NCBI RefSeq assembly: GCF_003334335.1
Contig: NZ_QOWQ01000001.1
Reading direction: 5' to 3' (one strand)
DNA length: 64,000 nucleotides
Source of the DNA: Escherichia coli
Lineage (GTDB): Bacteria; Pseudomonadota; Gammaproteobacteria; Enterobacterales; Enterobacteriaceae
Below, one piece after another: positions 44,482 to 49,169 of this stretch (positions within the stretch are counted from its first letter, which is position 1; every line of letters starts with the position of its first letter). The notes beneath the pieces were generated by a model that saw only the letters and a list, made by a program, of their open reading frames with translations, had not been told where the DNA came from and searched no databases. Position numbers and translations under genes: made by a program.

Positions 44482-45354
44482 TTACCAGCGGCCGGATGCG
44501 CCGCCACCTCCAGAAGAACCGCCCCCGCCGCTAAATCCGCCGCTATCTGAGCCTCCAGCGGAACCGCTGTTGTCTGAATGATAACTTCTACCAGATGCTC
44601 TTTTCTGAAGTACACATAAACAGGTAAAGACCATAAATATGGTGAAAGTAAAAAAGAAGGAAAATACAGCAATGGAAAAAATTTTATCGGAGAACAGGAA
44701 TAAATCTAAAAGATAGATTGCTGAAATACAGACTCCACTTTTACATGCGCGACAAAAATTACTGCCTTGATGAAAAAACCAGAAAGGGAAGAACATCACT
44801 GCAAATACCCAAAAAATAGCAAAGTAATAATGATCACTGGAAGACGCTGATTCACTTTCTGAAGGATTAGTCGGATATTGGTGTTGTGAAGTGAGTTGGT
44901 TATTCAAAGCGTTTATAGCTAGCTCTAATCCCTTAGCTAATTTTTGTTGTTTAAATGCGGGTATCATGTTGCTACGGATGATATCTCCAGCCAGAGCATC
45001 GGTTACCTTTTCTTCCAGCCCATAACCTACCTGGATGCGGACAGTGCGATCCGACCAGGCAACAACGATCAGTATCCCATCATTACGTTTGGCATCTCCT
45101 AAACGCCAATTGTCAAAAACTCTTGTAGCATATTGTTCAATTGTCTCGTCTTTGGTTGTGGGAACAATTAATACGGCAATTTGCACTTGGGTATTATTGA
45201 AAATAGATTCTAACTTGTGCGTCAGTTCTTTCTTTTCTTGTGAGTTTAAGCTACTCGTAAGATCCGTAACTTGTTGCTGTAATTGTGGGACAATAGTTGG
45301 TTGGGCTGCAACAAAGGAACATACGAAAGTGAACATTAGTATGAAATAGCGCAT
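44482..45354 (-). CDS. ygcG: TPM-domain membrane protein YgcG with glycine-rich C-terminal tail
   Basis: ORF 44482..45423; probable start [18 protein letters not shown] (signal peptide) at 45354; internal TM segment; C-terminus [24 protein letters not shown]; AT-rich coding sequence. Confidence 0.75.
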
Positions 45355-45646
45355 TATAAATTTCTCATTAAATCTGGATAAATAAATTGACGGCGGCATC
45401 GGTAATTTTATATTCGTTATCATTAAAAACTAATACAGAAAAAATAAATATAATTTTGGTGAATGTTTTGACATGATTAAATCCATTTTCTTTATTTTCT
45501 TCTGACATAATACGTTACTCCCTTTAATTATTAACGATATGTTTCGCATTTTTCTTTAAACCTGCCTGTAACAGAATGTTAATAAGACATGATTGTTGTG
45601 GCAGGATCTGCAATAATTAACAATTATCCACTTCACAGAGAATGCT

Positions 45647-46318
45647 ATGCAGTACCCGATTAACGAGATGTTCCAGACGCTGCAAGGTGAGGGTTACTTT
45701 ACCGGCGTTCCCGCCATTTTTATTCGTTTACAGGGATGCCCGGTTGGCTGTGCCTGGTGCGACACCAAACACACCTGGGAAAAGCTTGAGGATCGGGAAG
45801 TCTCCCTTTTCAGCATTCTGGCGAAGACCAAAGAGAGTGATAAGTGGGGGGCTGCGAGCAGTGAAGATTTGCTGGCTGTCATTGGTCGCCAGGGATACAC
45901 CGCGCGGCATGTGGTGATTACGGGTGGTGAGCCTTGCATTCATGATTTGCTGCCACTGACTGATCTGCTCGAAAAGAACGGTTTTAGCTGCCAGATCGAA
46001 ACCAGTGGTACTCATGAGGTACGCTGCACACCGAATACCTGGGTTACCGTATCGCCAAAGCTGAACATGCGCGGCGGCTATGAAGTGTTGTCACAGGCAC
46101 TGGAGCGAGCCAACGAAATCAAGCATCCAGTGGGGCGCGTACGCGATATTGAAGCACTGGATGAACTACTGGCAACGCTGACCGATGATAAACCGCGAGT
46201 CATTGCACTGCAGCCGATTAGCCAAAAGGATGATGCCACACGTTTGTGCATTGAAACCTGCATTGCGCGTAATTGGCGTTTGTCGATGCAAACACATAAA
46301 TATCTAAATATTGCCTGA
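45647..46318 (+). CDS. queE: 7-carboxy-7-deazaguanine synthase (radical SAM)
   Basis: 223 aa, MQYPINEMFQTLQGEGYFTGVPAIFIRLQGCPVGCAWCDTKHTW. Confidence 0.9.
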   Translation: MQYPINEMFQTLQGEGYFTGVPAIFIRLQGCPVGCAWCDTKHTWEKLEDREVSLFSILAKTKESDKWGAASSEDLLAVIGRQGYTARHVVITGGEPCIHDLLPLTDLLEKNGFSCQIETSGTHEVRCTPNTWVTVSPKLNMRGGYEVLSQALERANEIKHPVGRVRDIEALDELLATLTDDKPRVIALQPISQKDDATRLCIETCIARNWRLSMQTHKYLNIA

Positions 46319-46657
46319 TTAAACATTTATAAGCGTTATAAATGGGTGGAACCTGTAAAGACTTCTACTCATTTATATTGTTTGTCGCCTCTGAAAACTC
46401 CTCCATTTTACCCATCCAGGGCTAATCATTAGCATTCTCTACAAATTCTGTGGCATTAATTTTTCGCTGGAGTGAAAATTATTGCGGTAAAGTTTGGTAG
46501 ATTTTAGTTTGTATAGAGTTATTTTAAATATTTACCTTTTTAATCAATGGATTAAGTGCTCTTTAACATAATGGATGTGTTGTTTGTGTGATACTATAAA
46601 GTTGGTAGATTGTGACTGGCTTAAAAAATCATTAATTAATAATAGGTTATGTTTAGA

Positions 46658-47052
46658 GTGTTCCCCGCGCCAGCGGGGATAAACCGGCAAAAACCGGGCA
46701 ATCGCAAAAAGGCGTAATGTGTTCCCCGCGCCAGCGGGGATAAACCTGTGTTTGCGGCATTAACGCTCACCAGCATTTCGTGTTCCCCGCGCCAGCGGGG
46801 ATAAACCGACGTGGTCATGGGTGCTGCTGTTGCAGAGCCAGTGTTCCCCGCGCCAGCGGGGATAAACCGAGCAGATACACGGCTTTGTATTCCGTGCGCC
46901 CGTGTTCCCCGCGCCAGCGGGGATAAACCGAATAGCAATAGTCCATAGATTTGCGAAAACAGGTGTTCCCCGCGCCAGCGGGGATAAACCGGAGCCTGAC
47001 GAGACTACTGAGGCCGTTCTGTCGAGTTCCCCGCGCCAGCGGGGATAAACCA
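46658..47052 (+). CRISPR. Type I-E-style CRISPR array: 7 repeats of 29 bp, 6 spacers of 32 bp, AT-rich leader on the queE side
   Basis: Repeats GTGTTCCCCGCGCCAGCGGGGATAAACCG start at 46658, 46719, 46780, 46841, 46902, 46963 and 47024, strict 61-bp period; last repeat is the variant GAGTTCCCCGCGCCAGCGGGGATAAACCA; no cas genes in the window. Confidence 0.95.
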
Positions 47053-47522
47053 CCATATAACCCGTTATCTCTTTCTCAAGTTTTTATATTAGCAGTACTT
47101 GTAATAAGCAACATATCCACGTAACACCTCATGTTCAAAATAGTTCTCCATGCCAGAGAGGTTCACAATTATCGATACAAAAAATTAAATTTAATCAAAG
47201 TGTTATTTGTATGATTCTTAAATCGTTAAGAAATTTTAATCTATTATTTTTTTAATATTGAATTAATGCCTGTTAATTTTTTCTTTAGAATAACAGTATA
47301 TTTTTTAAGCTTGTTATTCATTGGTTAAGTAATAAATCTGGAAGTTTGTCTTTGTTTTGAGGCTAATGAGTGGTTTTACATAACCGCCTCTATACGCTGT
47401 TGATGAATAGTTCTTATGAATAAAGATATCCAGTTCATACTTTAAGTGAAAATTGATAAAGTGCGATTCGTATTGTCTTTTATTCTAAAGACATCGAGTG
47501 TAGTTAATATTCCTTGTAAAAA

Positions 47523-47645
47523 CAGGGATAAACCGAACTAGTTAAAGTTTTTATTATGTTCCCTGCATCAGCGGGGATAAACCGGACTTGTTATCATTTT
47601 TTAAGTTGTCGAACTTATGTTCCCCGCGTCAGCGGGGATAACCAT
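47523..47645 (+). CRISPR. Degenerate CRISPR remnant: 2 diverged repeats plus a truncated repeat
   Basis: cagggataaaccg (truncated), atgttccctgcatcagcggggataaaccg (47556-47584), 32-bp spacer gacttgttatcattttttaagttgtcgaactt, atgttccccgcgtcagcggggataaccat (47617-47645). Confidence 0.8.
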
Positions 47646-47690
47646 TCAGGTATGTTCAGGCCGGGCAGTTTCCCGCCCGGCCTTCCTCAC

Positions 47691-49169
47691 TTACGCATTC
47701 GACCAGCTCTGGATCGAATCCACATTCCCCAATTCCCCATGCATCACTTCATACGATTTTTTCAGGATCACATCAGTATGTTTGGTTAGGTCTTTGAAAA
47801 TGCCTTTATTCATCGCGTCGTAGCGTTTGGCATTGCTCTCAATCGGTATAAAGATATCTTTCACGCGAACCATGTTATCGACAGCCGTTGCGTAATCCGG
47901 GTATAGCCCCAGACCTACCGCTGTATTAATCGCTGCCCCCAGGCTTGCACAACCGTTAATGGCGTTACGTCGTGCCGGAAGGTTGAACACGTCGGCAAAA
48001 ATCTGCATAAACAGATCGCTGTTCGAACCGCCGCCAGTAATGATCACATGCTTCGCAAAGTGATTCATTTCATTACACATATTGTCGTAATTGTTCTTCA
48101 GCGTCAGCGCCACGCTTTCCAGTATCGAACGATATATCCATGCGTAATCCATGCTGGAATCAAAGCCGATCATAATCCCGCGTTTGTACGGTTCCCACGG
48201 ATTGGTCAGCCAGTCCAGCACCGTCATCAGACCATTACAGCCTGGCGGCACACAAGAAGCTTTTTTGTTGAGTAAATCTTCCGGTGAAAGATCCTGCGCC
48301 CTGGCATCCTGAATTAACGACTCGCCTAGCATGTCGCGCAGCCAGCTCACCGTCCACATGCCTTTGCGAATACCGTAACCTTCATACAGCAATGTTTGCG
48401 GAATAGAAGACATAATCGGCCAGTACGCTACTGGATCTTTCGGCAGTGCTTTGCCGTTCATCATCAATGCGATGTAAGTGCCAAGAGAAATTACCGCCGT
48501 TTCATCATCCAGTAATCCGGCCCCCAGAGCTTCTACCGGTTTATCACTGGTGGTACAAACAACCGGCAGTCCTGCCGGGAAATGTGTCGCCAGTGCGGCT
48601 TGTGGTGTGATATGTCCGAGGACGGTGCCAGGCATTTGCACATCAAACAGCATATGACGGGGGATATTAAACTTATCCATTACCGCAGCATCTTCGCTCC
48701 ATGCCCAGCTCTTATAATCCACCGGCCACTGACCAAAATAGTTGGCGATATTGTCTTTAAACTCGCCGGTTAAGCGATGCGTCAGATAACCCGAAAAAGA
48801 GGTGACATATGCCACGTCAGGGTTAGTGTGTTCGTAAGGGCGTGTAACGCGTGCATCCTGCCAGCTAATCAACGGCGCAGCAGGCGTGCCATCGGCTTTC
48901 AATAACGCACGGCAGCAACGGATGGATCCCAGACCAATACCGACAATATCTTCTTTATTCCCGGCAAACTGACTCATCAAATCGTGACCGGCAAAACATA
49001 ATGATGCCCATAAATCGTCGTCAGGATGTTCTGCAGTATCGGCATCTGGCGTGTGCATCGGCTGTAATAAGCCTTTGCCTTCGCAAACCACGTTACCTTC
49101 CAGATCGTACATCACCACTTTTGTGCTCTGACTTCCGCCATCAATCCCTATGATGTATTTTTTCGACAT
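47691..49169 (-). CDS. ygcE: FGGY-family carbohydrate kinase, substrate unknown
   Basis: 492 aa, MSKKYIIGIDGGSQSTKVVMYDLEGNVVCEG; FGGY N- and C-terminal domains. Confidence 0.85.
   Translation of the reverse strand: MSKKYIIGIDGGSQSTKVVMYDLEGNVVCEGKGLLQPMHTPDADTAEHPDDDLWASLCFAGHDLMSQFAGNKEDIVGIGLGSIRCCRALLKADGTPAAPLISWQDARVTRPYEHTNPDVAYVTSFSGYLTHRLTGEFKDNIANYFGQWPVDYKSWAWSEDAAVMDKFNIPRHMLFDVQMPGTVLGHITPQAALATHFPAGLPVVCTTSDKPVEALGAGLLDDETAVISLGTYIALMMNGKALPKDPVAYWPIMSSIPQTLLYEGYGIRKGMWTVSWLRDMLGESLIQDARAQDLSPEDLLNKKASCVPPGCNGLMTVLDWLTNPWEPYKRGIMIGFDSSMDYAWIYRSILESVALTLKNNYDNMCNEMNHFAKHVIITGGGSNSDLFMQIFADVFNLPARRNAINGCASLGAAINTAVGLGLYPDYATAVDNMVRVKDIFIPIESNAKRYDAMNKGIFKDLTKHTDVILKKSYEVMHGELGNVDSIQSWSNA

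Follow-up and report, generated by a model that had tools for sequence, protein, structure and literature searches.

We analyzed a stretch of 64,000 nucleotides of Escherichia coli DNA (RefSeq contig NZ_QOWQ01000001.1; hereafter the window) in which the genes queE and ygcE flank the CRISPR-II locus, where a CRISPR array of type I-E is followed by AT-rich DNA and by a small group of degenerate repeats. This group, the subject of our analysis, is CRISPR2.2, a name that Díez-Villaseñor et al. reportedly gave in 2010 to this part of the E. coli CRISPR-II locus and that recurs in PMC3903273, PMC4489801, and PMC3737337. The 4 kb around it are identical to K-12 strain MG1655 except for a single base (45679, G for C, a third codon position of queE; ACG vs. 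ACC, both Thr), and K-12 coordinates are obtained as 2,951,065 minus the window coordinate. The locus is composed of the following features, given in window coordinates (CDS, coding sequence; repeat scores are identities to the array consensus).

45647..46318, plus strand: queE (ygcF) CDS, the leader-side neighbor, from the annotation of the identical K-12 record.
46319..46657, plus strand: leader2.3, AT-rich, belonging to the active array and lying upstream of its first repeat; conserved in E. coli, E. albertii, and partly E. whittamii.
46658..47052, plus strand: CRISPR2.3, the active array, with seven 29-nt type I-E repeats and six 32-nt spacers; CRISPR in RefSeq records.
47053-47506: AT-rich intervening DNA, 454 bp, 28% GC vs. 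51% for the window.
47056..47087, plus strand: relic spacer marking the left margin of the AT-rich DNA; 23/32 to the last spacer of the SC418 unsplit array.
47088..47343, no strand: variable AT-rich part, approximately 25% GC; roughly the published promoter island ygcE/queE.
47344..47506, plus strand: conserved AT-rich segment directly upstream of R2.2a, approximately 30% GC.
47434..47462, plus strand: candidate sigma-70 promoter (TTCATA, 17 nt, TGaTAAAGT with an extended -10), from our own consensus scan.
47507..47535, plus strand: R2.2a, degenerate repeat ATATTCCTTGTAAAAACAGGGATAAACCG, 19/29.
47536..47555, plus strand: spacer 1, 20 nt, AACTAGTTAAAGTTTTTATT.
47556..47584, plus strand: R2.2b, degenerate repeat ATGTTCCCTGCATCAGCGGGGATAAACCG, 25/29.
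47585..47616, plus strand: spacer 2, 32 nt, GACTTGTTATCATTTTTTAAGTTGTCGAACTT.
47617..47645, plus strand: R2.2c, degenerate repeat ATGTTCCCCGCGTCAGCGGGGATAACCAT, 24/29, ungapped; 45 bp before the ygcE stop.
47658..47683, no strand: GC-rich hairpin, 26 nt, with a predicted 9-bp stem, between the convergent array and ygcE.
47691..49169, minus strand: ygcE CDS, an FGGY-family sugar kinase convergent with the array; stop codon at 47691-47693.

The RefSeq CRISPR annotation covers the seven-repeat array only, and the MG1655 record is empty between ygcE and queE. The final repeat of CRISPR2.3, which ends at 47052, is degenerate at its 3' end (…ATAAACCA), and the AT-rich stretch that a preliminary description of the window had noticed after this repeat is present at 47053-47506. 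The cas3-casABCDE-cas1-cas2 genes of K-12 are located approximately 24 kb from CRISPR2.2, just beyond the edge of the window. The GC-rich hairpin at 47658-47683 is probably a bidirectional terminator, and a hairpin resembling it is also found in an Escherichia genome that lacks CRISPR at this site.

CRISPR2.2 is composed of three degenerate type I-E repeats arranged around a 20-nt and a 32-nt spacer in the same orientation as the main array. In a comparison of the array consensus with both strands of the 64-kb window (128,000 positions), the best other score was 19/29, found at one other site; given that no other position in the window tops this score, the 25/29 of R2.2b and the 24/29 of R2.2c are far beyond chance. 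The preliminary description had correctly placed the diverged repeat atgttccctgcatcagcggggataaaccg (R2.2b, 47556-47584, 25/29) and the two spacers of 20 nt (47536-47555) and 32 nt (47585-47616). Its "truncated repeat" cagggataaaccg does sit at 47523-47535, but it belongs to a full-length copy at 47507-47535 that is in register with R2.2b, matches the consensus exactly over its last 11 nt (3'), and still folds canonically. Of the ten positions at which R2.2a departs from the consensus, eight are GC-to-AT changes. The further diverged repeat atgttccccgcgtcagcggggataaccat is R2.2c (47617-47645, 24/29), although it stops short of ygcE, with the 26-nt hairpin between the repeat and the stop codon. 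All three repeats are predicted to fold into the canonical 7-bp stem with a 4-nt loop (-7.9, -12.1, and -15.1 kcal/mol). The stem is retained in R2.2a via two double changes and one G-U pair, in R2.2b with one G-U pair, and in R2.2c perfectly. We considered the compensatory changes in R2.2a as a striking signal in their own right and dropped them, their chance probability being approximately 0.16. An 8-nt 5' handle precedes each CRISPR2.2 spacer and a Cas6e-type hairpin follows each. The unit with the 32-nt spacer has a period of 61 nt and the unit with the 20-nt spacer a period of 49 nt; because 12 of the first 17 nt of the two spacers agree, the spacer 1 unit is a diverged duplicate of the spacer 2 unit, minus 12 nt. 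An Rfam scan of 46300-47800 (E-value up to 10) gave chance-level matches only, with no CRISPR-DR or small RNA (sRNA) family. The homology of the repeats to those of the main array, their shared orientation, and their presence at the orthologous site in approximately 4100 of 5426 complete E. coli genomes bear out the earlier view that this is a genuine degenerate CRISPR remnant.

The preliminary description regarded this remnant as a second array. Comparison with other genomes argues instead for a single array that was split. The locus of E. coli SCU-101 consists of a leader, a repeat, a spacer, and the terminal repeat gagttccccgcgtcagcggggataaccat; beyond this repeat come the same hairpin and ygcE. 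A 3'-degenerate terminal repeat ('...gcgtcagcggggataaccat') ends the unsplit arrays of E. coli SCU-101, E. coli SC418 (eight repeats), and E. albertii (three repeats), and the lone repeat at the locus in E. whittamii is this same terminal repeat. Because R2.2c is shared with those unsplit arrays, it represents the ancestral terminal repeat of CRISPR-II and predates E. coli. At the opposite end of the AT-rich DNA, positions 47056-47087 are identical to the last spacer of SC418 (L004 2957-2988) at 23 of 32 positions, in fixed register after the repeat. This relic spacer is AT-richer in K-12 than in SC418 (9 vs. 13 G+C) and is nearly invariant among split-locus strains (nucleotide diversity [pi] of 0.0014); the SC418-type last spacer directly adjoins the terminal repeat in 17 genomes. 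The relic spacer on one side and the ancestral terminal repeat on the other therefore indicate one array split rather than a second array, and the literature likewise describes one split array (PMC10910852, PMC3903273). We consider it likely that the feature is CRISPR2.2 as the leader-distal tail of a once single queE–ygcE type I-E array; whether this tail has a function is a separate matter, on which we infer with moderate confidence that it does.

Approximately three of every four E. coli genomes have the split layout, which none of the other species sampled shows. At a coverage of at least 80%, the region is found in 4125 of 5426 complete E. coli genomes, each time as a single chromosomal copy, and queE and ygcE are adjacent without CRISPR in one Escherichia genome, Citrobacter, Cedecea, Klebsiella, and others. 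We posit that an early lineage of E. coli acquired AT-rich DNA (approximately 420 bp beyond the relic spacer) by insertion where a spacer met a repeat, and that this insertion would have cut the tail off from leader2.3. The content of the tail would then have been frozen, because Cas1-Cas2 adds spacers only at the leader-repeat junction, and H-NS would coat the AT-rich DNA, as published chromatin immunoprecipitation (ChIP) data suggest. CRISPR2.2 takes up no spacers, as judged by the absence of strain-to-strain turnover. Losses do occur: R2.2b and spacer 2 were lost by repeat-repeat recombination in O157:H7 TR01 (L005 2956-3030), and two metagenome contigs have internal deletions in the AT-rich DNA, one lacking 47267-47418 (L109) and the other 47203-47321 (L163).

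The preliminary description also assigned to the remnant its own leader-like region. When leader2.3 was aligned locally with the AT-rich DNA, 28 of 300 dinucleotide shuffles did as well as the real sequence, whose proximal 70 nt likewise aligned no better than shuffles; no similarity was found between the AT-rich DNA and the K-12 cas/leader2.1 region. We are cautious in interpreting this test of leader homology, which is weak because leader2.3 itself shows no similarity to the K-12 cas/leader2.1 region. No IHF-type motif was seen by eye upstream of R2.2a. The function of a leader is to steer the polarized uptake of spacers, and because the spacers never change, there is no sign of leader-driven acquisition at CRISPR2.2. 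Published accounts assign leaders only to CRISPR2.1 and CRISPR2.3 (PMC3903273, PMC3737337). What survives of the claim is that the 160 bp upstream of R2.2a are AT-rich and highly conserved, which partly favors it given that these two properties are the operational definition of leaders.

A consensus promoter scan of the AT-rich DNA found 3 sites vs. 4.0 expected, a chance level. The candidate promoter at 47434-47462 comes from a looser scan and is located inside the conserved block, approximately 45 nt upstream of R2.2a; this weak candidate would start transcription approximately 40 nt before R2.2a. A natural variant (47459 A>G) falls within its -10 element. A 347-bp promoter island ygcE/queE (2901670_347), classed with horizontally acquired DNA, shows H-NS binding in every one of the ChIP data sets (PMC3661553 Table 1). 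We estimate from the coordinate offset between genome versions that this island maps to about 47072-47419, mostly the left and middle AT-rich DNA, and by the same conversion the conserved block and the mini-array are at or beyond its right edge. Nowhere in the locus is variation higher than in the center of the AT-rich DNA (47144-47303; pi up to 0.14 among eight strains), which coincides with the H-NS-bound promoter island and whose variants look haplotype-structured.

The AT-rich DNA has no homologs in phage records, and its "plasmid" matches are E. coli chromosomes filed as plasmids. No second copy was found in E. coli, where it is always chromosomal and single-copy; it is absent from other species among the matches listed (80 enterobacterial queE loci), and in all of 80 metagenome contigs it occurs in the queE-ygcE context. 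An insertion sequence or a miniature inverted-repeat transposable element was considered and rejected, as the AT-rich DNA has no terminal inverted repeats, is single-copy, and contains no open reading frame (ORF) or homolog. Six-frame translation revealed no gene remnant in the AT-rich DNA. The segment 47344-47506 contains no ORF of 32 aa or more, and the idea of a small protein was also discarded, the only ORF of note being a 31-aa GTG-start frame (47446-47541) without a Shine-Dalgarno sequence. The 167 nt upstream of R2.2a fold slightly more stably than shuffles (z = -2.7 on the plus strand and -2.1); fold z-scores of the whole block are uninformative because the repeat and terminator hairpins dominate both strands.

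The block 47344-47628 is highly conserved; it extends from the rightmost third of the AT-rich DNA through R2.2a, R2.2b, and the two spacers to the stem of R2.2c. The word "decayed" in the preliminary description is therefore apt for the past only: decay did happen, but few sequences of the locus are today as conserved as the remnant. In eight strains picked for maximal divergence, the mean pairwise divergence is 1.0% in the right part of the AT-rich DNA (47351-47506) and 0.75% in the mini-array (47507-47645); it is 7.0% in the left part of the AT-rich DNA (47053-47350), 6.0% in leader2.3, and 6.0% in the 45 bp around the terminator. In queE and ygcE, third codon positions reach 9%. The block has 8/295 segregating sites vs. 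49/299 in the left AT-rich part (Fisher p = 6e-9) and 115/493 at ygcE third positions (p = 3e-17 vs. the block). The same pattern is found when equal 295-bp queries are compared with complete E. coli genomes, with the following identities to K-12.

Block, 47351-47645: at least 99% identity in 3640/4167 genomes (87%); below 95% in 2.
Left part, 47056-47350: at least 99% identity in 2354/4162 genomes (57%); below 95% in 885.
Leader, 46363-46657: at least 99% identity in 2627/4569 genomes (57%); below 95% in 644.
ygcE coding sequence, 47691-47985: at least 99% identity in 1448/5373 genomes (27%); below 95% in 655.

Spacer 2 is identical in 4049 of the 4063 E. coli genomes that carry it. Nucleotide diversity was calculated from 44 unique sequences drawn from metagenomes and isolates; all 80 metagenome sequences were chosen by an exact 21-mer inside the block, a bias limited to those 21 positions. 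In this set pi is 0.0023 for 47389-47628 and 0.0049 for 47351-47506, as opposed to 0.041 for the left AT-rich part (with a peak of approximately 0.06), 0.035 for the terminator, 0.035-0.047 for the terminator and ygcE coding sequence beyond CRISPR2.2, and 0.086 for ygcE third positions. Neither spacer 1 nor spacer 2 has a single variant among the 44 sequences. Within the repeats, the variants are located in loops (47520, 47629, and 47630), at the end of a stem where a wobble pair is compatible (47528), in the dispensable 3' tail of R2.2c (47643), in one handle (47582), and at one stem pair (47564, in 3 sequences). Variation in R2.2c is confined to the loop and the 3' tail, and conservation ends inside this repeat, about where a CRISPR RNA (crRNA) would end. 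Pairwise distances in the left and right flanks correlate (r = 0.63, permutation p < 0.0005), and distances in the core track the same genealogy (r about 0.54) but are approximately 7 times smaller. A shared genealogy together with a roughly 7-fold slower core is predicted by purifying selection and not by a recent replacement of the core. We therefore propose with moderate confidence, from sequence comparison, that the block 47344-47628 is under purifying selection and that it may have a function.

As to what this function might be, we favor the reading that the block is kept as a short transcript with crRNA-like units, which would be produced from its own upstream region or by read-through. 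A crRNA-like transcript would be the most economical explanation, given that no part required for two crRNAs has been lost. More specifically, the block of approximately 285 bp, with its conserved upstream region and two crRNA-like units with fixed guides of 20 and 32 nt, may be a functional unit maintained across E. coli phylogroups rather than a fossil; it could encode an RNA of CRISPR origin that regulates or protects the host, whether through Cascade or independently of it, a suggestion that we make only tentatively and that goes beyond what we would call probable. A role in cis of the DNA or RNA, for example insulating ygcE from read-through of the array, may be envisaged as well; such a role would not obviously need base-by-base conservation.

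Several points weigh against the scenario of an inserted, isolated, and then maintained tail. The direction of the change may have been the opposite, with AT-rich DNA lost in the unsplit strains instead of inserted in the others. A locally low mutation rate is also conceivable and may account for the low diversity, as no sampled outgroup carries the block. The survival of the R2.2a hairpin, with a chance probability of approximately 0.16 under GC-to-AT decay, is not compelling, and one variant, 47564 T>A (3/41 sequences), breaks a stem pair of R2.2b. For neither spacer was a target with a seed and a protospacer-adjacent motif (PAM) plus extended pairing found in the 64-kb window or in the 12.5-kb K-12 cas locus, where seed-only matches occur at the chance rate, and no protospacer for spacer 2 was found in phages, plasmids, IMG/VR, or E. 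coli genomes (plasmids and prophages included). The block is dispensable, being absent from approximately 24% of E. coli genomes, and natural partial deletions exist. Finally, BL21 carries a 100% identical copy of the AT-rich segment and is reported to lack cas genes (PMC3737337); a Cascade-dependent model is weakened by the retention of an identical copy in this reportedly cas-less strain.

Two exact 20-mer matches to spacer 1 were found in environmental IMG/VR contigs; their flanks, GAA and CAG, are not the type I-E PAM, and we rejected them because a word this rich in AT should give approximately four matches by chance. One "viral" contig of IMG/VR (L094, IMGVR_UViG_2531839665_000019; 39.7 kb) holds the E. 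coli chromosomal queE-CRISPR-ygcE region and was counted as the sole "viral" spacer match; it is probably host DNA beside a prophage or a misclassified contig.

Among the competing explanations, a chance resemblance of AT-rich intergenic DNA to CRISPR repeats, which the preliminary description had named as grounds for its own refutation, can be put aside as having next to no probability. R2.2a taken alone would be compatible with it, since its 19/29 is within the background and is equaled at one other site in the window. The 25/29 and 24/29 of R2.2b and R2.2c against a background maximum of 19 in 128,000 positions, the correct spacing and orientation of the repeats, and the orthology of R2.2c to terminal repeats of other species exclude it. 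A separate array founded with the AT-rich stretch as its own leader and since decayed is more substantial, as this stretch is upstream of R2.2a in the right orientation, its proximal 160 bp are conserved and include a promoter-like site approximately 45 nt upstream of R2.2a, and its dissimilarity to leader2.3 argues only weakly when leader2.3 and the K-12 cas/leader2.1 region are themselves dissimilar. We nonetheless regard such an origin as very improbable in view of the terminal repeat, which belongs to the ancestral single array, and the relic spacer of that array with which the AT-rich DNA is bordered on the left; the lack of similarity to leader2.3, overall or in the proximal 70 nt, the lack of an IHF-type motif by eye, the invariant spacers, and the absence of a leader for CRISPR2.2 in the literature (PMC3903273, PMC3737337) point in the same direction.

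A neutral fossil, in which low diversity reflects recent ancestry (through a sweep or recombination) or a low local mutation rate rather than selection, is a serious possibility, if not one we would call probable. It would fit the degenerate repeats, the shortening of spacer 1 to 20 nt, the lack of targets, the absence of the block from approximately 24% of genomes and its partial deletion in some, and the gradual climb of diversity on the left side of the block, as is seen around a swept segment. However, the diverse flanks share a genealogy (r = 0.63) that the differences in the core also follow (r about 0.54), and a recent replacement of the core is disfavored because it would have erased this signal. 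Furthermore, the independent, selection-free import of one 290-bp tract into all phylogroups is unlikely, and even the coding sequence of ygcE next to the block is less conserved. CRISPR2.2 could also be a regulatory mini-array. CreA of CreTA modules and CreR are crRNA-like RNAs from CRISPR-derived mini-arrays, and the CreR kind autoregulates cas genes. By analogy, a crRNA-like RNA from CRISPR2.2 would guide Cascade by partial complementarity to repress a host promoter (that of cas genes or of a toxin). The degenerate repeats keep exactly the 5' handle and hairpin parts, the spacers are invariant, and the upstream region is conserved, all of which would be expected of such an element. The split locus is also absent from SCU-101-type strains; their minimal array of two repeats corresponds to what has been reported for B2 strains, which are described as lacking cas-E genes (PMC2941450). 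We find this explanation unlikely given that neither the adjoining sequence, the 64-kb window, nor the cas3-casA promoter regions of K-12 contain a PAM-flanked seed with extended pairing, that CRISPR2.2 is 24 kb from the cas operon rather than inside it with no adjacent toxin-like small gene found, and that the block is unchanged in BL21, reported as cas-less (PMC3737337).

CRISPR2.2 itself is textbook K-12 anatomy, to which its finding adds nothing new. What is unexpected for a dead CRISPR tail is that the mini-array and its upstream 160 bp change approximately 7 times slower than the sequences on both sides, and slower than the neighboring gene. If this constraint does mean function, CRISPR2.2 would be an overlooked CRISPR-derived RNA element in the best-studied CRISPR system, and no such element would have been proposed before for the type I-E system of E. 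coli, a model system. We caution that "degenerate repeats" should not be read as a synonym of "non-functional".

The locus has further peculiarities. When landing pads are placed at the ygcE locus, intrachromosomal recombination often removes them, for reasons that are unexplained (PMC4558010); if the integration site is as we assume, the direct CRISPR repeats that flank the AT-rich DNA may explain this excision via single-strand annealing. Upstream of queE (about 44700-45500), K-12-type strains carry yqcG (46 aa) and ygcG, and many other E. coli (L003, L005, L086) carry a gene for a 200-aa LemA-family protein and a TPM-domain gene; yqcG may be the leftover of a replacement or truncation. In E. 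coli M19 (L091 2607-4422), only the 3' 456 bp of ygcE are left, with queD and cysJ immediately after them; on the far side of CRISPR-II, everything from yqcE through ygcN has been lost in a large deletion.

The feature is the same object as the published CRISPR2.2, from which it has no structural difference, and in this respect it was already known. The CRISPR-II locus is described as containing either one array (CRISPR2.2-3) or two (CRISPR2.2 and CRISPR2.3) 0.5 kb apart (PMC3903273), the separation consisting of approximately 0.5 kb of AT-rich DNA (PMC3903273, PMC10910852), and CRISPR2.2 is described as three repeats with two invariable spacers (PMC4489801). The match extends to its position on the ygcE side of ygcE–ygcF/queE, the three repeats, the two invariant spacers, the AT-rich gap, and the lack of an assigned leader. 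Newly quantified here is the constraint on the remnant and the 160 bp upstream, where published accounts go no further than "invariable spacers"; likewise, the relic spacer and the identity of R2.2c as a terminal repeat that predates E. coli are unstated in PMC3903273, PMC4489801, and PMC3737337. Both comparisons are with accounts other than the naming paper of 2010.

Nearly all terminal repeats of Escherichia and Salmonella arrays are 3'-degenerate (PMC2886076), and R2.2c resembles such trailer-end repeats in being 3'-degenerate and in ending the locus in several species; it differs in that the trailer here is split from the active array by non-CRISPR DNA and is accompanied by two further degenerate repeats. 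With type I-E arrays of repeat cluster 2 in general, CRISPR2.2 shares the homology of its 29-nt repeats, the predicted Cas6e-type hairpins, and the presence of cas genes in K-12, but not the turnover of spacers. The DNA upstream of CRISPR2.2 is similar to type I-E leaders (leader2.3 and leader2.1) in its AT-richness, its upstream position, and the conservation of its proximal 160 bp, and unlike them it has no similarity to leader2.3, no signs of acquisition, and no assignment as a leader in the literature. The AT-rich DNA is also listed among H-NS-bound promoter islands (PMC3661553), an island that covers mainly its variable left part. With respect to the CreA/CreR mini-arrays, CRISPR2.2 differs in having no PAM-flanked partial target nearby or at cas promoters, in being located outside the cas operon, and in having no toxin candidate; it is comparable to them in its tiny size, its degenerate repeats with a handle and a hairpin, its fixed spacers, and its strong conservation.

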